Origin: Chrysochromulina tobinii
Lineage: Eukaryota
Length of the DNA: 45,457 nucleotides
Assembly (NCBI GenBank): GCA_001275005.1
Contig: JWZX01002865.1
Span: 1-45,457, forward strand
Direction: 5' to 3'
The notes under the pieces are model-generated. The model was not told the origin of the DNA, searched no databases, and saw only the letters and a program-made list of their open reading frames with translations. Made by a program: the position numbers and the translations under genes. This document shows positions 3,864 through 45,376 of this stretch, one piece after another; position 1 is the first letter of the stretch; each line of letters begins with the position of its first letter.

Positions 3864-6044
3864 ATGGAAGCAGAAGTGCGCTCTGAAATTGCTTTGACAA
3901 TCACGCCTCTTTCTTTCACAATCACAGGATCAGTCGTCGACGATTCACAAAATCGATGCATTTCCGTCCACATGCGAATACCGCCGCCCAGCGTGTCAGC
4001 ACCTGCGAAGGCGCGAACACGGAGCGCCTTTGAGATTGCCGCAGGGGCTCGACTGCTGAGGAGCAGCGCCGCCCTCGCAGCCGACGGCGAGAGCAACAGC
4101 CTGGACGACCGTGTCGCTGCGGAAAAGCGCGTTCTCGGTGCTGGTGGCAGTGGCAGCAAGTGTGCCAGTGGCAGCAGCAGCAGTCAGGCTGACCGACTCC
4201 CTGCACACCTCGATGGTGGTAGATGCAGCGTGGATGATCGCGCCGACAGCCTCGCGTGGCCTGGCATCGAGAAGGCCGAGAGCAATAGAGAAGGCTGTCC
4301 ACCTTGCGACGTGGTCGCTGCAGCGGCTTTGGCCAGGAAGCTCCGCAGGCGTTCGCTAGCTCAATCGTGGTGGCACTGGCGCGACTGCCTTGAGATTTCC
4401 CGCTCTGAGCGTTGGCTGCGGCTCCACACGATCTTCTTCCAGCTGCGTGAAGGCATCGTCCATGAGGTGGCTCGAGCGCGACTTCGGCACGCACTGCCCC
4501 GAGTGGACGCATCGCAACGGGCGCGTGGGCGCGCGCTTCGCCGCTGGCGAGCTGAGGCTGCACGCCGTCGAGCGCCGTGGCGAGCGCCCTGTCGAGCGCC
4601 GTGGCAAGCGGACCGCATGCACGGTCGGCCAGTCTCACCTTCGGCGCAGTCGGACACCTCGAGCCTCGCTCTGAGCCTGCGGAGCCTGAGCAGCAGCACT
4701 CTGCAAAGTGCCGCCACGACGGTGCTGCGGGGTCCTGTCTATGTGCCGGGCGGACCTGCACATTTTGGCAAGGGGGCTGCCTATGGCCCCCTTCGAGGTG
4801 GCCGTCTGAGAGGAGCCTTGCATGCAACCAGGATGGCTCCCGCCGCACTCGTGTCCACCGTTCGCCAGCTGGCGGTCCTTTGCTGCTGGTCCGCCCGAAC
4901 GCGGCGGGAAGCGCGTCTCATCGCGTCCGTGGCGGCGCTCGCGCGGCGGCGCGGGCGGCGTGCAGCATATCGCGCGCTGCGCTGGTGGGCCGTCGAGCGC
5001 CGCCGCGAGCGCGGCCGGCTTGCGATGTGGGCGTTGGCCGTCGAGGTTTCTCTCGAACGAGCGTGGGCGTGCTGGCGGCGCTACTCGGTCAAAGAGGCTC
5101 GTCGAGCGCGTGCGAGCAGCGCGCCCGTCCTATGGGCACTCGCTCCGTGGGCGCGTGCCGTGCGTTCGACGACTGTGCAGCGGCTGCGTCGCTCGTGTCG
5201 CCGTTGGGTACGCCGGTACCGCTCTCTCCGACCTCTGTCCCTTGCATGCAAGTGCTCACCACGGCGCGGCATCCTACCGTCCCCACAGGTGCGCCGGTAC
5301 CACGCAGACGCGCCTCTGCTGCATTCTCATCGGCAGGGGATGCGGGCGGCGGGCCGCTTCCGGAAACGGAACGTGTGGGTGCGCTTGAAGGCCGGCGCCG
5401 CTGCCGATGCGGAGCGTTGGCGTCGGTGGGCCAACGTGGAGGCGATCGCGCTGGCCCACCGCGGGCGGCATACGCTGCGCCGCTGGCTGCGCGTCTCGGA
5501 GCAGCGGCTGAGTGCAGGGCAGCGATGGCATGGCAGGCTTCTCCTCTTCAGCCTGGTCGGCGATATGGTGATGGCGCTGCACGAGTGGAAGCTCTACTGC
5601 GAGTACGAGGGTCCAATGCAGCAGGTCGTGGCGCTCTGTGGGCGGCGCGCCGGGTTGCGTCACGGCTTCCGTCGCTGGCGTCAGCAGCACGCCTCGGCAC
5701 CGGCACCCGCCCCAGCTCCCGCCCCGGCACCATCGCCCGCTCGATACGGCGCGGCACCCGCCCCAGCTCCCGCCCCGGCACCATCGCCCGCTCGATACGG
5801 CGCGTCACCCGCGTGGTCGCCGACGCGCTTGGCCTCGGCGTCACCACCCCAGTGGGGCCGCGGGCTACTGTCTGCTGCTGCCGATAGTGCCAGTGCCAGT
5901 GCCAGTGCCACGAGTGGCGCGCCCGCCATAGGAAATGCTTGCCGCAGTGCCGCCATGCAAGCAGCCGCAGCAGCCGCCGCAGCTGGTCCGACACACCCTT
6001 CGACTGCTCTACAGCGGGTGCAGGATGTGCAGGAGATGGATTAG
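3864..6044 (+). CDS. Arg/Trp-rich protein with Sfi1-like (centrin-binding-type) repeats; probable in-frame 81-nt intron 5208..5288
   Basis: Recurring motifs RALRRWR, LERAWACWR, RHTLRRWL, ALHEWK, RHGFRRWR; Pro/Ala tail with a 51-bp tandem duplication near 5703-5804; start codon uncertain. Confidence 0.45.
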   Translation: MEAEVRSEIALTITPLSFTITGSVVDDSQNRCISVHMRIPPPSVSAPAKARTRSAFEIAAGARLLRSSAALAADGESNSLDDRVAAEKRVLGAGGSGSKCASGSSSSQADRLPAHLDGGRCSVDDRADSLAWPGIEKAESNREGCPPCDVVAAAALARKLRRRSLAQSWWHWRDCLEISRSERWLRLHTIFFQLREGIVHEVARARLRHALPRVDASQRARGRALRRWRAEAARRRAPWRAPCRAPWQADRMHGRPVSPSAQSDTSSLALSLRSLSSSTLQSAATTVLRGPVYVPGGPAHFGKGAAYGPLRGGRLRGALHATRMAPAALVSTVRQLAVLCCWSARTRREARLIASVAALARRRGRRAAYRALRWWAVERRRERGRLAMWALAVEVSLERAWACWRRYSVKEARRARASSAPVLWALAPWARAVRSTTVQRLRRSCRRWVRRYRSLRPLSLACKCSPRRGILPSPQVRRYHADAPLLHSHRQGMRAAGRFRKRNVWVRLKAGAAADAERWRRWANVEAIALAHRGRHTLRRWLRVSEQRLSAGQRWHGRLLLFSLVGDMVMALHEWKLYCEYEGPMQQVVALCGRRAGLRHGFRRWRQQHASAPAPAPAPAPAPSPARYGAAPAPAPAPAPSPARYGASPAWSPTRLASASPPQWGRGLLSAAADSASASASATSGAPAIGNACRSAAMQAAAAAAAAGPTHPSTALQRVQDVQEMD

Positions 6045-8685: not shown

Positions 8686-9202
8686 TCGTGGGGATTTGTA
8701 GACATATGCTTGAGGCACCAATGTGCAATGGGTCCGCGGGCCAGCGAACGCCACTTCGTTCACGCTCGTCCCCTTGCGTGAATCTGCGCGCCACGCGCGG
8801 GCACATTCTGACCAGGATGTTGGGTCACGCGCGCCGCCTGCTGCGCGGCGTTGCTACCGCGAGCGCGACCTGTGCTCGGTGTCCGGAGCCCGACGCTGCT
8901 CGGAGGTCACCCCTCCCCCCACCCCCCACCTGATTGCCTGTCACAATCCCGCCCGGTAGTATAGGGCAGCGAGCACCAGAGATCACACTGTGTGCTGGGA
9001 GAGACCGACCTCACTAGCGAAATTGAGCAGCCCGAGCGAGCGAGTACTCAGTACTTGTGTTGACCGAGGGGAGCGGAGCCGTCCGTCGAGACGGTGGTGG
9101 AGTGAGCGCGGGGGGACCGCGAAGAAACTGAAACTGAAACTGAAACTGACCTTTTCGCAGAAGTTTGACACTCTCCTACCCAGGGTGCGCGAGGTCACGA
9201 TC

Positions 9203-24089: not shown

Positions 24090-26248
24090 GCATGAACACT
24101 CTTGTGTGGATAGCTGAACTATCTGTCCCAATCAGTCAGTAAGTCAGTTTCGTCGCGGTCCCCCAGCGCACTCTCCACCTCGGCTCCAAATAGCTTGGAA
24201 AGGGGTGGGGGAGTACGTGCCCGCGCTCACGCGTGCGTTGCCTTGGGCCGGTGTGTGGCCTTCGGTCGGCCGAAGATGAGCGTCTGGGGACACGCTGGAC
24301 GTGCACGGAGCGCGCCTGCCAAAGTTGCATGCATTTCATTCACCACATCCCTTTTTTGGTACCTATTTGATGTTTCTGTGTCGAGTTTTCTGTTACAGAC
24401 GCCCCTGCACCAAAATTCTCTCGAGACACTCAATGGACACTCTCAAAACTGCGCACCAGATGGCGCTTCCGTGCGCTCACGGTCAGTCGGTCACCCTCAC
24501 GCTCGCTCGAGGTCGCACCCCAACACCCACCCACCACGCCCATCCGTGTGACCGAGAGTCAAGAACTGGTCATCACCCCAGTCGTTCTTGCGCCCGTCGA
24601 TACGAGCTCGTGCCCGGGCTGCCTGGCTCCTACGAGGCGTCTGAAGCACACATGTACGAAGGCACGCAGCGAGAACAAGTGGCACACTTCTCCCTCCGTC
24701 GATTCCCGCCATGCCAAGCGCTCGGGCACAGGGTCCGCACCCGCTCTCACGGCACCTGAAGCAGTCCAAATTCCAGGCGTCTCTTTGGCGATCGACTTTG
24801 GGAGTGACGTGGGCGTTCGCGCGGGCGAGATGCACGTGTTCTCAGAAGCACCTTCGCATATTTCATCATCCTCTCAGGCGCTGAACTCATCGCACTTGCC
24901 CGTGCCGACGCTCATTATGGAGCAAGGTGAGGTATCTGACGTGGATGGCGACGTAGTCATGGCCGAGGGCGACGCGTTCGCTCGAGACACACGTATTGCT
25001 AACCAGGCGGTGGATGGCCTGGCGCCGCCCGCTCTCGACAATGCTGTGCGTCGGTGCGCACCATCGGATGCTGTGCGAGGTCCAGCGCCGCCACCCGGCC
25101 GTCAACATCACCGGCACGGCCGATGACACGTACTTCAACGGCGACGAGCGCCACTGAGGCGCCGTCGAGCATCATGTACAGGTACCATCCCGCCCGTTCG
25201 TACAAGTATCGACCCACCAATCCAGTTCGTACGTACCAGTACCAACCCCCCGATCTACAGCGTGGTGCAACCGCCGGGAACACCCGGATCCATACCATCC
25301 CGAACAACTACTATAATGGCAGGCAAACGAACCGTTGATGTCAAGATCTCATTCGAGCAATTCGACATGCTGCCAGGCGCTGCAGGCAAGATGAGTACGA
25401 GTTCCCAGAGAAGGGCAATCCAGACTAAGGAGCATTTTTAGCCCCGAGGAGCTGGACTACTTTGCCGATGTTATCAAGTACGCCTCGCACTCGGGCCTCT
25501 ACACTGTAGATGTCGAGGATGCATGCGACATGCTCCGCGCGGCAATTGAGCGCCCCATCCCTGACATGTTTCTCCCTCTTGCCAATCTCATGCTTGACCT
25601 TGTGGACTCTAACGAGTTCCACATGGTCTCGAAGTACGCGGAGGCTCACACTCTGGCCATGCAGCTCTGGAGCCTTTCAAGTGCACCGCAGCACCGGGAG
25701 TCCACGATGAGGATGCGTGCATCCCAGAGCTCATGCTCGCTCACGGACGGGATGGCAGACAAGCTCCTGGTTACAGACGCCCGCCTTCTGGAGCTGCAGA
25801 TGTATGGCGGGGATGCCCTGGCCGGCTGGCGGTGCTTGTTACGGTGCACGAGGAGCAGGGACGGCACGGCACGCGCCCGGCTGCCTGTGCAGCTCACTCA
25901 AAGCGGGTGGGAGCGCGAAGACGCCATCATCATCGTGGCCGTCTTCACAGTGATGAGGATGCCACTAGCCTGGGCCTTGCGCGACGTGATTGGTCCGTTG
26001 CGGTGGAGTTAGAGCCGCGACCGCTTATTCATATTATCCGCTTATCGTTCGCCGCGCCGCTGTCCCCTGAGCTCGCTGCGGACAAGGTCACGCACAATCC
26101 ACACGACCCGAAGAATCAGCCCTGCTTTCAAACTGCTTCTCCCCGCGACCCCGTTCCCCCCCGTTTCCCCCCTATGCATGCGCGCATTGCACCCGACCGA
26201 AACAGCGCGTCGACCTTGCTGCGCCCGGCGACGCGGCGACGGGGCCGC

Positions 26249-37514: not shown

Positions 37515-39578
37515 TCATTCAACTTTTGGTGCAAAGCATAGGAAGGCGCTGGGAGGCACTGCAGCAGATCTGAGAATGCTGTCATCGAAGCCGGCGGGCA
37601 GCTTGATTGACGCCAACGAGGAGCAGCCATCGAAAGCGCGCTCACCGATGCTCGTGAGGCCCGCGGGCAGCTCGATCGACGTCAAAGAGGAGCAGCCACG
37701 GAAGGCGCCCCAATCGAGGCTGGTGAGGCCTGCAGGCAGCTCGATCGACGTCATCGAGGAGCAGTCCTCGAAGGCTAACTTACCGATGCTCGTGATGCCG
37801 GCGGGCAGCTCGATCGACGTCAATGAGGAGCAGCCAGAGAAGGCCTCCTGACCGATGCTCGTGAGGCCAGCGGGGAGCTCGATCGATGTCAATGAGGAAC
37901 AGCCATTGAAGGCGCCCCAATCGAGGCTCGTGAGGCCTGCAGGCAGCTCCATCGATGTCATCGAGGAGCAGCCATCGAAGGCGTACTCACCGAGGCTCGT
38001 GATGCCGGCGGGCAGCTCGATTGACGTCAAAGAGGAGCAGCCAGAGAAGGCCTCCTTACCGATGCTCGTGAGGCCGGCGGGTAGCTCGATCGATGCCAAC
38101 GAGGAGCAGCCATGGAAGGTGAACACACCGAGGCTCGTGAGGCCGGCAGGCAGCTCGATCAACGTCAACGAGGAGCAGTCATCGAAGGCGCACATACCGA
38201 TGCTCGTGAGGCCAGCAGGCAGCTCGATCGACGTCAATGAGGAGCAGCCATCAAAGGCGCACATACCGATGCTCGTGAGGCCGGCGGGCAGCTCAATCGA
38301 CGTCAACGAGGAGCACCCATTGAAGGCGTGCTCACCGATGCTCGTGAGGCTGGCGGGCAGCTCGATCGACGTCAACGAGGAGCAGAGAAAGAAGGCGCCC
38401 TCACTGATGCTCGTGAGGCCGGCAGGCAGCTCGATCGACGTCAACAAGGAGCAGCCCTCGAAGGCGCTTTCACTGATGTTTGTGAGGCCTGCAGGCAGAG
38501 CGATCGACGTCATCAATGTGTCGTCGCGGAACGCGCCCGGCGGCACGCGCGCCTCGCCATGGCGCAGCGCGCACGCGGCGAGCAGCACCTCCATCGGCGC
38601 CTCGCCCTCGCCGCGGATGCACGCGCGCACCCCTGCCATCGGATACGGCGGTGGACCCTCTTCATCTTCTTCTGATCCATCCGAAGACGCCACGCTCCTC
38701 AGCGCGGCCACGTCCACCTCGAAGCCGCCCAGCCCCGTCACTTTTTCCAGGTTGGGCAGCCAGCGCGATGCGTCGACCGCGTCGGCGAAGAGGCGACCGG
38801 CGGCGCGGCTGCCCGAGAGGTCGAGCTTGGTCACCTCGACGAGGTTTCTCGTGAGTCGCAGGCCGACGCGTGCGCACAGCCGCGCGCACAGGACGCGCCG
38901 CACCCGCGCGCGCCACGAGAGGCTCACGCCCTTGAGCGCGCACAGCGTCGGCACGTCGGCGCCCGCGAGGGCGTCCTCGAGGGCGTCCTCGTTTACGAGC
39001 TGCGTCGAGAGCCAGCACACGGGCGCTGGCGTTGTGGGTGCGTCGGCCGCTCGCAGTGCGGTGGCGTCGTGCTGAGCGTCGTCGTGCGTGAAGATCTGCT
39101 CCTCCGTCGCCGCCTGCCGCTCCGCCTCGGTGGGGAAGTCGCTCACGACACCAAGCAGCCGCCCGAGCTCCGGGCTACTCTTGCCGGCGAGGTGGCCGGT
39201 GCACAGGGAACGCGAGAGGAGGCGGAGAAGCTCGACGTCCACGTCGAGAAAGTGCGCGCCGTGCAACAGCTGCGCGAGCTGCGCGAGCGAGCACCCCTCC
39301 AGCGCCCTGCCATCCTCCGCCCCGCCCTCGGCGACGCGCGAGAGCGTGCGGAGCGCAGCCGCAGGCACCAGAGTGGCGAACGCCCCCTCAGCGCCGCCCG
39401 TGTCGCTCACCCAGTTGGCGAGCGCCGCCGATCGCGCCGCGGCCAAACGGGACCACGCGACCACCTCGCCCTCGGCGCTTCGCACCCTCACATCGCCGTC
39501 GTCGCCGACATAGCCGATGACGTCGCCGCCGCCGCTGTCACCGCCGCCGCCGACGTCACCGTCCCGACATCGCTTCAT
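37515..39578 (-). CDS. SKP1-like + F-box-like + BspA-type (LRR_5) leucine-rich repeat protein
   Basis: 13 full 23-aa repeats LTSIELPAGLTSIGxxAFxGCSS; N-terminal LLHGAHFLDV..LAGKSSPELGRLLGVVSDF..AERQAATEE; NEDALEDAL..DVPTLCALKGVSLSWR. Confidence 0.8.
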   Translation of the reverse strand: MKRCRDGDVGGGGDSGGGDVIGYVGDDGDVRVRSAEGEVVAWSRLAAARSAALANWVSDTGGAEGAFATLVPAAALRTLSRVAEGGAEDGRALEGCSLAQLAQLLHGAHFLDVDVELLRLLSRSLCTGHLAGKSSPELGRLLGVVSDFPTEAERQAATEEQIFTHDDAQHDATALRAADAPTTPAPVCWLSTQLVNEDALEDALAGADVPTLCALKGVSLSWRARVRRVLCARLCARVGLRLTRNLVEVTKLDLSGSRAAGRLFADAVDASRWLPNLEKVTGLGGFEVDVAALRSVASSDGSEEDEEGPPPYPMAGVRACIRGEGEAPMEVLLAACALRHGEARVPPGAFRDDTLMTSIALPAGLTNISESAFEGCSLLTSIELPAGLTSISEGAFFLCSSLTSIELPASLTSIGEHAFNGCSSLTSIELPAGLTSIGMCAFDGCSSLTSIELPAGLTSIGMCAFDDCSSLTLIELPAGLTSLGVFTFHGCSSLASIELPAGLTSIGKEAFSGCSSLTSIELPAGITSLGEYAFDGCSSMTSMELPAGLTSLDWGAFNGCSSLTSIELPAGLTSIGQEAFSGCSSLTSIELPAGITSIGKLAFEDCSSMTSIELPAGLTSLDWGAFRGCSSLTSIELPAGLTSIGERAFDGCSSLASIKLPAGFDDSILRSAAVPPSAFLCFAPKVE

Positions 39579-39685
39579 GCTAAAAAAGGAGAGGACTGAA
39601 GGTTATGGACTTCAATGAGAGGCAGCTGACGAAATAACTGATTGACCGCGTGGTGCTCAAACTTTGAGTTCACGAACTTTCTGAA

Positions 39686-41664
39686 ATGCGAGCTCTCCAT
39701 GTACAAAAGTATACCATGAAGTCATCAGCTCTCCGTCGATCCTCAAGACGAGTCCGTGGCATGCCGATTTGCGGCGGGCGGACTGCTGCCGTGCAGTTTC
39801 TATCTCTTCTTGGGACGGCCGGAAGCTGCCTCGCGCTTTCTGTTCGAACATCGCCGTCTGTGCGAACATCGCCGCCGTTCGCCTGTGCGACGCAGCAAAG
39901 TCCGACGCCGCAAAAATTGACGGTCCCAAGTAGCTCCGGTGCCCAGTGCTTCATCTTCACGAGCTGCCAAGCTGGGTCCGAGAAGCTCCTCAAGGCCGAG
40001 CTCGCACGCACCCATCCGGAGCTCCGGTTCGCCTACTCGCGCCCGGGGCTTGTCACCTTCAAGAATAGCTCCGCGGACGGGAGCGTCTCTCCGGCGGTGT
40101 CCCTCCGCTCGTCCTTCTCCCGTGTGCACGGCGCCTCCGTCGGCCAAGCAAGGACCGCGCCGGAGGTCTGCGAGCTCGCGCGGCGCCTACCGTCCATCCA
40201 TTCGCACATCCGCCCTCCTCTGTGCCTGCACGTGTGGAGCCGCGATCTAGCAGGTGCGCGTGCGATGCACCCAACCGCCGTGAGCGAGCGAGCGGCCCGG
40301 GTGGTCGCCCTCCGGCGCGAGCTGCAGGCGTGCGCCCCCGACCTATGGGCTCCGAGTGAACTCGCTCAGGAAGGCGCGCCGGTGCTCTCAGTGATCCTCG
40401 GCGAGGCTGACGAACCTTTCTTTGTCGGGGTGCACACCCATCAAAGCTACGAGGAGGAGGGGGTCCCTCCGCGAGGCGCGGGCGCCGTAATGGGCGCACC
40501 GAACGCCATGTTGAGTGCGTCTTCAGCTGCGCGTGGGCGGGGCGCGGGCGGCGGCACGATCGGCCCTCCCAAAGATGGCAATCCTTCCAAATATGGGAGC
40601 GCATGCGACCGACCGATCGTCCTACGGCGCGCGCACGTGCCGCACGCCGGAGCGCTCTTCCCCGGCTTGGAGCAGGTACGTTGATGGCCACCGATGCCCT
40701 GCCCTGCATGCAAGTGCTCACCACAGCGCCTCGACTCTACCCCGATTTGGAGCAGCACCCGATCGAAGCGCCGTCGCGGGCGTACTTGAAGGTCGAGGAA
40801 GCGCTGCGTTGGGCAGGCGCGATGATCGAGCTGCGCGCGGGCGACACAGCGCTCGAGATTGGATCTGCGCCAGGTGAGATTGGATCTGCGCCCGGAGGGG
40901 CCGCCTCCATGATTGCCTCCATGATTGCCCAGAGTGCTCCTCTGATGACCTCCCTGATGGCCTCCCTGATGATGACCTCCCTGATGACTTCCCTGATGAC
41001 TTCCCTGAAGCCTGATGGCCTCCCTGGATGGCCTCCCTGATGGCCTCCCTGAGTGCCTCCCCCGAGCCAAAATGGAAGAAAAAGACAAGGAGATATGGAA
41101 GAATGCGTGCCCCCTTCATAGGTGGGGCCGCCTATGCCCTCCTCGAGCGCGGGCTGCGCGTCTACGGCGTCGACCCGACGCCGCCCGGGCGCAAGCACGC
41201 GCCGATCGTGGCCGAGCATCCGAGATTCGTCGAGATCGTGGCGCGGCTCGGCGAGCCGGGGCTGCTCCAGCGACTCCCAACCGACGTCGACTGGCTCCTC
41301 TGCGACGCCAACATCGCGCCCGACGTGGCCGTGCCCCATCTCGCCGACCTGTGCTCGCGCTGTGGTGAGCGGCTGCAGGGCCTCTTCTACACTTGCATGC
41401 AAGTGCTCACCACGGCGCTCTTTCCCCACAGGTGAGCGGCTGCAGGGCCTCTTCTACACTTGCAAGCTGGGCGAGAAGCTCTGGACGAAACCGGCGCAGA
41501 TGCTCGATGAGCTCGAGGCGCTCAAGGCGCAGCTCGCGGAGGCGGCGGACTTTGGCGTGATGCAGAGCGTCCAGCTGAGCGCCAACCGGCAAGAGCTGCT
41601 CGTCCTGGGCGTGACGCGTAGGGGGCTCCAGAGGGCAGAGGGGCGCACGGCGTCCTGGGCGTAA
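39686..41664 (+). CDS. RlmM/YgdE-like (FtsJ family) RNA 2'-O-methyltransferase, predicted join(39686..40675,40756..40873,41122..41364,41432..41664)
   Basis: Spliced product has APSRAYLKVEEAL, ALEIGSAPGGAAYALLERG..YGVDP, VDWLLCDAN, TCKL, QLSANRQE; all three GT-AG introns keep the frame; start may be 39716 or later. Confidence 0.8.
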
Positions 41665-42875: not shown

Positions 42876-43909
42876 GGTTTGTTATCGAGTTTGGGGGGGT
42901 TTGTTATGTATCAGGATACGTATCCCATGTATCACGCATGTATCCCGCATGTATCCCGCATGTATCCCGCATGTATCTTGATGTGTCCCGTTCATATATA
43001 CATCAAGATACATCAAGATACATCGAGATACATTTGTATCTTGACTTTGGCCATCATAGGAAATGTATCTTACCTAGGGATATGTATCCTTCTTTACGAT
43101 ACATTTAGGATACAGTAAGGATACATTTAGAATACAATGTATCTTAACCCTCAGATACATGACACACAAGATACATGCACGATACATGTCAGATACAAAG
43201 GGATACATTCGTACATTCGAGGATACGTATCTCGAGCCCGACTTGCGGGGCGCGTGGATTCCCCCAAACCCCCGAGATACGTGTCCCGCATGTATCCCGC
43301 ATGTATCCCGCATGTATCCCGCATGTATCCCGCATGTATCCCGCATGTCTCAATTCATATCGGATGCATCTCTCTCTGGATGCATTTGAGATACATGTAT
43401 CTCATCATGTATCTTGGATATATCCCGCATGTATCTTGATCACCCTTGCAGATACACGATGTATCTCGCATGTATCCCGAATGTATCTTGCATCTCAGAT
43501 ACTGTACGTACCTCGTCATGACGCATCCAAGATACATGTACACATGTATCGTGATTTTGTATCTCGGTGTATCCTGATGTATCATAAGATGTATCGTGAT
43601 GAAGAGTCCAAGATACACGTATCCTGATGTATCCTGATATGTATCCAGTGTGACACCAGGAGGAAGCGCCCAAGATACATGTATCTTGATGTATCTGATA
43701 TTATGTATCCCAAAATGTATCTTGGACTCGTTTGGGATACGTGTAAACTACATGATTCTCTTGGAATGTAACAGGGCATTTAAGATACATTTGAGATACA
43801 TCAGGATACATGAGGGATACATGTATCCTTCAGGATACACGCAGGATACATCACGATACATCAGGATACGTATCCTGATAACAAACCCCCCCAAACTCGA
43901 TAACAAACC
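42876..43909. mobile_element. MITE/foldback-like element with about 46-bp TIRs and GTATC/GATAC-rich interior
   Basis: GGTTTGTTATCGAGTTTGGGGGGGTTTGTTAT(GTAT)CAGGATACGTATCC versus its reverse complement at 43864-43909; 11-bp tandem ATGTATCCCGC arrays. Confidence 0.8.
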
Positions 43910-44185: not shown

Positions 44186-44423
44186 GTTGACCCAAGGGGG
44201 AGTGGTCTACTATTTTATTCATGTTTATAAGGCCCTAACCCCACACCTGTTTGGGAACTGAATGGTTGACCCAAGGGGGAGTACGTCTACTATTTTTCAT
44301 GTTTATAAGGCCCTAACCCCACACCTGTTTGGGAACTGAATGGTTGACCCAAGGGGGGAGTGGTCTACTATTTTTCCAGTGTTTATAAGGCCCGTAACCC
44401 CACACCTGTTTGGGAACTGAATG
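44186..44423 (+). repeat. Three tandem copies of a 78-81-bp unit
   Basis: GTTGACCCAAGGGGGAGT..TCTACTATTTT..GTTTATAAGGCCC..CCCCACACCTGTTTGGGAACTGAATG starting 44186, 44265, 44343. Confidence 0.92.
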
Positions 44424-45376
44424 GGGTGGGCTTACCTTACATGTTTTCATGCACAAGAGACGAATCGCCGCGTGTCCAATGAAAGTTTGAAACCTTTCTC
44501 GCAGATCCCTCGCATGCCGTTTTTCTTTTTTTACGTGGGGTTTCGTGGCGTTAAGCCGTAATGTCTACTGAGCGTGCTGTTCATGTGCGGACCTGTCTAT
44601 CCGCTGGACATGTTCTACATGTGCGGACCTGTCGATCCCGTCTGCTGGACATGTTCTACTCTACATGTAAGCGAACAGTAACAAAAAGCCTGTGACTGTC
44701 ATGATAATGTGACTGTGTCTGTATTATCATGATACGTGTAGACTTCAGTTCACCGCCGCGGCGCTTTGCGCCGCGGGTCTCGTCTAGTCGATAGAGAAAT
44801 CGATAGAGAAATCCAAAATTGGAAAGTCGGCTGCTGTAAAGGTGGCAGCTCGGCTCGCAGACATGTACAGTACTCTATACGTCACTCGCAAATGGTCAGT
44901 CTACATTTGCCTTGAGGTGTGTCTCTCGAGACTCTCTCGAGGTGTCGATTAGCCCCGCGAAACTGTTTAGGTGTTTTCTAAATCGGCCGGTCGTACAACG
45001 CTGCCATCCCGATTCCCGAAGATGGACTTTGAGGAGTATCGAATATGTGTAAAAGTTGCTTGAAAAATTCCCAGGTGGGCGCGCCGTCCTGATGTCCGGC
45101 GTGTGCCCTGGCAACGACCTTCCGTATCCGTTACAAGCTGGATTCGCGCCGAGCACGCTGGTGCTGAGAGGCTCAGGATAGATAGGCCAAGGGGCGGGGG
45201 GGAGTGGGGTCAAGCAAGCAAGGAAGCTTGACCCATGCTCAGCCCCGAGGTCAAGCTTGACCCCACCCCTCTTGCTTGACCCGGACCCTCTCAAGACCTA
45301 ACGGGCGGTCAAGCTATAAGCTTCCGCTCGTCGCGCTTCGGTGGCGCGGGTCAACCAAGGTGGACGCGAAGCCCTG

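Follow-up and report, generated by a model that had tools for sequence, protein, structure and literature searches.

It has long been asked where spliceosomal introns come from, and for most recent gains no source can be traced. Reviews list duplication, transposition, transfer and break repair as separate routes (PMC3443670, PMC3296678, PMC11282704, PMC8469720, as far as their accessible text goes). The introners of Polarella and Symbiodinium are reported with target duplications of 3-8 nt (bioRxiv 10.1101/2020.10.14.339549). A Chrysochromulina sp. family of a 2022 survey has 4-nt duplications and carries its 5′ splice site, and some introner families are published as having neither terminal inverted repeats nor target site duplications (bioRxiv 10.1101/2022.06.06.494994). 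In the accessible part of a 2025 survey, Chrysochromulina tobinii is listed with zero introner families (PMC12130899). The locus considered here lies in a 45,457-nt stretch of C. tobinii DNA, contig JWZX01002865.1, that was analysed whole (the window). GC across the window is 0.51-0.70, close to the 63.4% reported for Chrysochromulina tobin (PMC4580454). Intron 3 of the host gene, and the family to which that intron belongs, suggest that new introns arise in this lineage when the ends of older ones are copied into its genes. Such a process joins exon duplication to intron transposition, which are usually treated as separate routes. Some of the copies can be traced to a named donor intron, and public assemblies contain both intron-bearing and intron-less forms.

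The host gene (Table 1) is read in a single frame up to its stop codon after removal of its three introns. That excision of intron 3 restores the frame had been claimed by the first-pass annotation, and it does (...CSRCGERLQGLFYTCKLGEK...); retained, intron 3 shifts the frame onto a stop at 41433-41435, and it is from the restored frame and the intact exon 4 that we infer splicing. On its sequence the host is an RlmM-like methyltransferase only, and is so called because an orthologue (P0007) passes Pfam FtsJ above its cut-off, whereas the score for NCBIfam RlmM (PRK11760) is far below the cut-off (P0007 and P0008 at 38 bits versus 176). Single exons of the gene gave no Pfam match. For the host protein the ESM Atlas returned bacterial RlmM/FtsJ clusters and nothing else, and for the module peptide no match; Rfam gave three weak microRNA hairpin matches, far under cut-off.

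Table 1. Features of the host gene, of intron 3 and of the family copies in the window (positions are those of the window)
Feature	Position	Strand	Remark
Third family copy	5208..5288	+	intron-like, 81 nt; the frame around it (734 codons) is unrelated
Exon 1	39716..40675	+	start codon uncertain: 39716 or 39761
Intron 1	40676..40755	+	80 nt; second family copy
Exon 2	40756..40873	+	
Intron 2	40874..41121	+	248 nt; family core absent
Exon 3	41122..41364	+	
Target site spanning intron 3 donor	41357..41370	+	reverse complement of family core
34-nt direct repeat, first copy	41364..41397	+	provides donor G|GTGAGC
Intron 3, likely	41365..41431	+	67 nt, GT-AG, phase 1; in RlmM/FtsJ-like methyltransferase gene
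CTTGCA	41392..41397	+	common to exon copy and family core; 6-nt microhomology at 5′ junction
Family core in intron 3	41392..41418	+	palindrome 41390-41405; branch-like CTCAC 41406-41410
Intron 3 tail	41418..41431	+	pyrimidine tract (41418-41428) and CAG acceptor (41429-41431)
34-nt direct repeat, second copy	41431..41464	+	start of exon 4
Exon 4	41432..41664	+	ends at stop codon 41662-41664

Intron 3 opens, as first noticed, with an exact 33-nt copy of the next exon (41365-41397 = 41432-41464), and the repeat extends one nucleotide (G) further leftward to give 34 nt in all. The proposal that the donor was recruited from the duplicated coding GTGAG also holds. The acceptor has a different source: exon 3 ends in TGTG, with no AG upstream of the intron, and the CAG sits within the foreign part. 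The branch-like CTCAC, the pyrimidine tract and the CAG are where the annotation had placed them, but the foreign piece is not just the final 34 nt. It begins at or before 41392, and not at 41398, because 41392-41418 is identical, over 27 nt, to 5241-5267. The tail ends in the same 9 nt as the copy at 5208-5288. Intron 3 has no terminal inverted repeat, its sole pairing being a locus-specific one between the donor site and the internal core. The site spanning the donor matches the reverse complement of its own core at 13 of 14 positions and that of the intron 1 core (40716-40729, 650 nt upstream) at 14 of 14; among 90,886 positions one other non-family site is as close, and no other GTGAG site in the window is as complementary to the core. 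Such complementarity may reflect guided insertion, or may be a post hoc coincidence, and by eye no pattern of this kind was evident in the upstream peptides of the other family sites.

The core, TGCATGCAAGTGCTCACC, occurs three times in the window versus 0.03 times expected, always on the coding strand, within a GT..CAG span and with an in-register exon repeat; no terminal repeat was found in these three DNA copies. The exon repeats match at 34 of 34 nucleotides for intron 3, 13 of 14 for the copy at 5208-5288 (a span that is stop-free and in frame, hence a candidate intron) and 18 of 21 for intron 1, where the repeat is on the upstream side and it is the 3′ end of the intron that copies the end of the upstream exon; the target duplications at these other two copies are 14 and 21 nt. 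Among the 4590 GT..YAG spans in the window that are 60-100 nt long, a junction-repeat score of 11 is attained by only 8, namely the three module-bearing spans and five within tandem arrays, so that the intron 3 repeat is not attributable to chance.

Profiles of the core as peptide yielded 10 proteins among representatives and then 35 of 267 candidates. The resulting census set, drawn from open reading frames of public assemblies, holds 57 core copies in 38 proteins (P0086-P0123). With the 10 copies that have no acceptor-like tail removed, the other 47 represent 36 distinct sites, which belong to 27 gene groups, keeping in mind that three pairs of these sites are probably one intron counted twice and that one site is the window's own at 5208. 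The host genes include those for LRR, Sec1, armadillo and helicase proteins, and exon repeats clearly flanking the core are exemplified by YRIWILSNCPKI, VRQHLLRFQA, VRIGVLEAAV and VRAAAALSDL. A frame-aware test scored how many bases upstream of the core were able to equal the start of the next exon. The copy so defined reached at least 18 nt at 21 of the 36 sites versus 4 of 400 shuffled cross-gene pairs, at least 24 nt at 14 versus 0 of 400, and at least 30 nt at 8 versus 0 of 400 (median 19.5 nt versus 8 nt in the null), with lengths overstated to the extent that, on peptides, synonymous differences count as matches. At 12 of the 36 sites the copy was shorter than 12 nt. Over 21 sites the distance from donor to core is 22-49 nt, and longer copies tend to have a shorter spacer ahead of the core (Spearman -0.53, p 0.013). 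Likeness between the copies is confined to the core, about 27 nt long, and to their final bases, the 5′ part being locus-specific. Because the search was keyed on the core, ascertainment accounts for part of its constancy. The first-pass annotation had seen in intron 3 a short acceptor cassette inserted with a long target duplication; the acceptor does lie within the inserted piece, but with a 36-site family the notion of a one-off 34-nt cassette falls away.

Like the introners of Symbiodinium, of Polarella glacialis classes 4, 5, 6, 8 and 10, and of Aureococcus, this family comprises related introns at many unrelated sites, and as in those introners the 3′ splice site is carried, the 5′ site comes from the duplication and the length of the message is kept. 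Unlike those introners, whose duplications are reported as fixed at 3-8 nt per family, the duplications here range from about 11 to about 39 nt with no constant 5′ end, and intron 3, with its 34 nt, is a typical member at the long end of that range. Symbiodinium elements are described as having inverted repeats, in contrast to the present family. Copies here also carry scraps of the exons of older hosts. The Chrysochromulina sp. family of the 2022 survey, in which the 5′ site is part of the element, is in this respect the opposite of the present one. A long duplication and the lack of terminal inverted repeats had both been set against described introners by the annotation, and both are real, but the lack of inverted repeats is no novelty given the published families that do without them. 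By introner tests in the broad sense, many unrelated loci and recent gain are found here and end-to-end likeness is not; the family functions like an introner, yet does not pass for one of the DNA-transposon kind. The core was not found in the supplement of the 2022 survey (bioRxiv 10.1101/2022.06.06.494994) or in 12 of the 14 supplements of the 2025 survey (PMC12130899), in the parts accessible. No description of the family was found in the open-access literature, and subscription papers, supplements and survey consensus files could hold one. The family suggests that surveys requiring end-to-end similarity miss whole intron families, C. tobinii being listed with zero in the 2025 survey. Unannotated copies also explain why MQVLTT and ACKCSPRR occur as spurious peptides among public proteins.

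Outside introners, there is a likeness to the break-repair gains reported for Daphnia pulex (PMC4202315), where the introns are also young and polymorphic, carry a direct repeat of the neighbouring exon and have later acquired duplications inside. The Daphnia repeats are reported as 4-12 nt; those here exceed that length, and their filler can be recognised as part of another intron of one family. As in the tandem genomic duplication of AGGT (PMC3443670, as excerpted), exon duplication gives a splice site, but here the acceptor and branch point are foreign and the duplication does not supply both sites. As in intron transposition or transfer, an existing intron is the source of the new one; in the account given of these (PMC3443670), reverse splicing leads to whole introns without duplication and transfer needs paralogues, whereas here partial introns pass between unrelated genes on short homology.

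Searches for the core beyond these proteins gave 10 matches in GTDB genomes, all 10 of them bacterial chance matches with no intron context. In viral contigs one 18-mer of the core gave no match. Another 18-mer gave three, two of them chance and one a true family tail (L027, 1375-1560), where core, tail and CAG|GTGAG stand at the very end of a phage-like fragment that stops 12 nt past the AG, with a local duplication of 36 nt and repeats of 10 nt ahead of the core; this is likely a chimeric contig end. At one site of a helicase gene two different family introns are seen (P0107, P0116, P0121), and the P0121 form includes a copy of the tail of the other helicase intron, as if re-copied in place. 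P0102 is an open frame of tandem core copies without acceptor tails, whose sequence suggests possible arrays of the core.

The scan of metagenome contigs gave 417 candidate stretches, 12 of which were confirmed. The identical 67-nt insert is present in L013, L014 and L015, the first two being equal to the window over 1821 nt and the third, 97% identical over 717 nt, representing another haplotype. Misassembly of this contig, which had been flagged for checking, is excluded because three DNA loci carry the identical insert. In L011, L012, L016, L017 and L018, which are contigs of 4-7 kb with several genes each and are 62-72% identical, a single unbroken tblastn match spans all three intron sites, and in L019 and L020 the peptide is continuous over the intron 3 site; L021 and L022 are distant. 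Overall, orthologues without intron 3 are at 62-74% identity, so that an intron-less form, as sought, exists in distant orthologues and the position is not conserved there.

In the allele survey 50 close proteins, called straight through the DNA, were classified, and 8 were uninformative; the two protein clusters are represented by 15 of 25 and 15 of 18 members among those listed. Among the proteins listed, the window's own group has 19 with intron 3 (33 contigs, a figure in which 5′ and 3′ reads may double-count one contig) and 8 without it (10 contigs). In the sister group, at 97-98% identity, 14 of the 15 informative proteins listed are without it (52 contigs), and one, P0075 (3 contigs), has it. 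Intron 2 is retained, but intron 3 is lacking, in contigs of the sister group that reach 7 kb. At k of 35 or less all k-mers of the intron-less form are also present in the intron form; the intron-less P0010 and P0011 share markers with the intron-bearing P0061 and P0070/P0072, and P0013 is a mosaic of the window group and the sister group. The absence of intron 3 from the sister group is well supported, and its absence within the own group is not secure, being indistinguishable from collapse at such k. Because distant orthologues and 14 of the 15 informative sister-group proteins lack it, intron 3 is a recent gain. The annotation had called it newborn, which goes too far: with at least five sequence variants among near-identical alleles, intron 3 is young and not newborn.

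These variants are the window type, FYTYMQV, STRR, ASSALA with STRR, and MCSPRRPF. P0016-P0019 have one or two additional tandem copies of the junction region at the 5′ end of the intron, and further alleles with additional tandem copies are P0092 and P0109; these extra copies show local re-copying. The idea that P0016-P0019 hold another intron, gained separately at this site, was set aside, since P0060, P0069 and P0076, which probably pair with P0018, P0017 and P0019, respectively, as their longest contigs are equal in length, carry the same exon copy, core and tail.

The copies also hold traces of their sources. For the copy at 5208 the 20-nt spacer, taken as DNA, matches the intron as read in P0090 at 19 of 20 nt, the next best among 31 sites matching at 11; 15 nt of it fit the next exon of the armadillo-repeat gene of P0090, and the tails agree (RGILPSPQ versus RGLLPSPQ and RDILPSPQ). 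P0099 and P0101 align over the intron and its repeat only and are otherwise unrelated. The intron of P0099 reads VRDGDL, from its own exon, and then NPA, which fits the exon of P0101 and not its own, and the target matches the exon of the donor at 5 of 6 codons. New introns are likely 5′-truncated copies of older ones because two introns carry scraps of an unrelated gene's exon, the genealogy being a matter of these two donor-recipient pairs. An all-against-all comparison of spacers on peptides was rejected as stand-alone evidence, being too noisy: chance codon-compatible runs of 20-22 nt occur in 3 of 490 pairs.

The reading preferred here, at a probability of roughly 0.55, is that homology-primed template switching on DNA produced intron 3 from an older family intron. 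A free top-strand 3′ end of the gene, ending CTTGCA, would have paired with the same six bases in a family intron elsewhere, and synthesis would have continued through the branch point, pyrimidine tract and CAG of the donor intron. The strand would then have rejoined the home gene at a GT that lies 33 nt upstream and resembles the first bases of the exon following the donor intron, and 34 nt of exon would have been duplicated in the process. In order, the product would consist of the exon, a copy of the next exon that begins with GT, the 3′ end of a family intron with its AG, and the next exon, the duplicate having become the 5′ splice site and the copied piece the 3′ splice site, with the message unchanged. 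Each new intron, flanked by direct repeats, could serve as donor in its turn, so that later copies would bear scraps of host exons, and insertions without a usable GT start, or too short, would be purged. Selection for spliceable inserts accounts for part of the geometry, whichever model applies. A more tentative extension, for which the odds are somewhat short of even, is a self-propagating, transposase-free family in which ordinary break repair would use the flanking exon copies as homology arms and return to GT sites would create the donor automatically. If that is so, each generation records its parent as an exon scrap, and the family would be abundant but invisible to introner surveys, half of each copy being local.

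An RNA template is the most serious competitor to template switching on DNA, though on balance an unlikely one. A LINE-like reverse transcriptase would copy an excised intron RNA, or a pre-mRNA ending in CAG, at a staggered nick, to give a 5′-truncated copy with a variable duplication, and those copies starting with GT would survive as introns. The fixed acceptor 3′ end, the 5′ truncation, the variable duplication and the junction microhomology fit target-primed reverse transcription as well as they do the DNA model, resembling in the last three respects L1 retrocopies, where microhomology is reported for about 80% of 5′-truncated insertions (PMC2912911). If an older intron were copied from RNA, scraps of donor exon would be expected just as much, and introners derived from non-LTR elements are reported (PMC12130899). 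Unlike L1 retrocopies, those here have neither poly(A) nor a simple-repeat tail and end with CAG directly at the duplication, and 14 of the 36 duplications are at least 24 nt as against a reported L1 peak of 14-16 (PMC2912911). The six-codon similarity between target and donor exon in P0099/P0101 suggests strand invasion instead, and no reverse transcriptase was found in the 26 of the 52 long window frames that were scanned.

It is improbable that the family is a small DNA transposon, an introner with its own enzyme, for example of HUH or Replitron type, that recognises the palindrome and leaves long variable duplications. The single conserved core with its 12-16-nt palindrome would suit such an element. 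As in the family here, Replitron-1 is described with variable duplications and a fuzzy end that derives from the sequence flanking the donor, and C. tobinii is reported to have one Replitron-like protein (PMC10288648). Unlike Replitron-1, intron 3 is inserted at TG|GT and not after RG, and the copies here have no terminal repeats, direct or inverted; a constant 5′ end is absent, and the duplications of published introners are fixed per family at the short lengths given above. In their accessible text neither the L1 nor the Replitron-1 report (PMC2912911, PMC10288648) describes introns of the present form, and no gene for an enzyme was found among the window frames scanned.

Very little weight attaches to the reading that the insert is real but poorly spliced or unspliced, a persisting frameshift allele with an intron look inherited from the family. 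Its attraction lies in a predicted hairpin at intron 3 (z = -3.5, modelled on the transcript) in which the donor pairs over 14 bp with the branch region and which could hinder splicing, and in the branch-like motif being altered in the alleles P0060, P0069, P0070, P0076 and P0077. Against this, exon 4 is open and almost invariant in the 13 proteins reading from intron 3 into it, and the exact GT/AG geometry repeats across the 27 gene groups, helicase, Sec1 and armadillo genes included. Least tenable is an old intron with its 5′ half overwritten by the adjacent exon and with intron-less forms due to loss between repeats or to assembly collapse, since, for all that both forms occur in both haplotype groups, that direct repeats permit exact loss and that k of 35 or less cannot separate the forms, the orthologues at 62-74% identity are without the intron, the sister-group contigs keep intron 2 and not intron 3, and the three identical DNA loci rule out an artefact of this assembly.

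Intron 2 opens with GT, after which the final 17 nt of exon 2 are copied and the first bases of exon 3 nearly so; together these amount to a copy of the unsplit exon 2/exon 3 junction. Repeats of 9-12 nt come next, P0018 holds one junction copy more, and the sister group has a different intron body at this site. The end of exon 1 at 40654-40665 (GCGCTCTTCCCC) is similar to the intron 3 tail at 41415-41427 (GCGCTCTTTCCCC), a likeness for which chance or a local template may be suggested.

The window has other repeats as well. The minus-strand gene at 37518-39602 has about thirteen 69-nt repeats encoding BspA-type leucine-rich repeats, and a dispersed 36-nt repeat occurs in inverted orientation, 89% alike, at 9096-9131 and 24144-24179. 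Three tandem units of 78-81 nt stand at 44191-44424, with related sequence at a different position in L014. An AT-richer, MITE-like stretch at 42876-43909 is bounded by a perfect 32-nt inverted repeat and packed with 11-nt satellite units.
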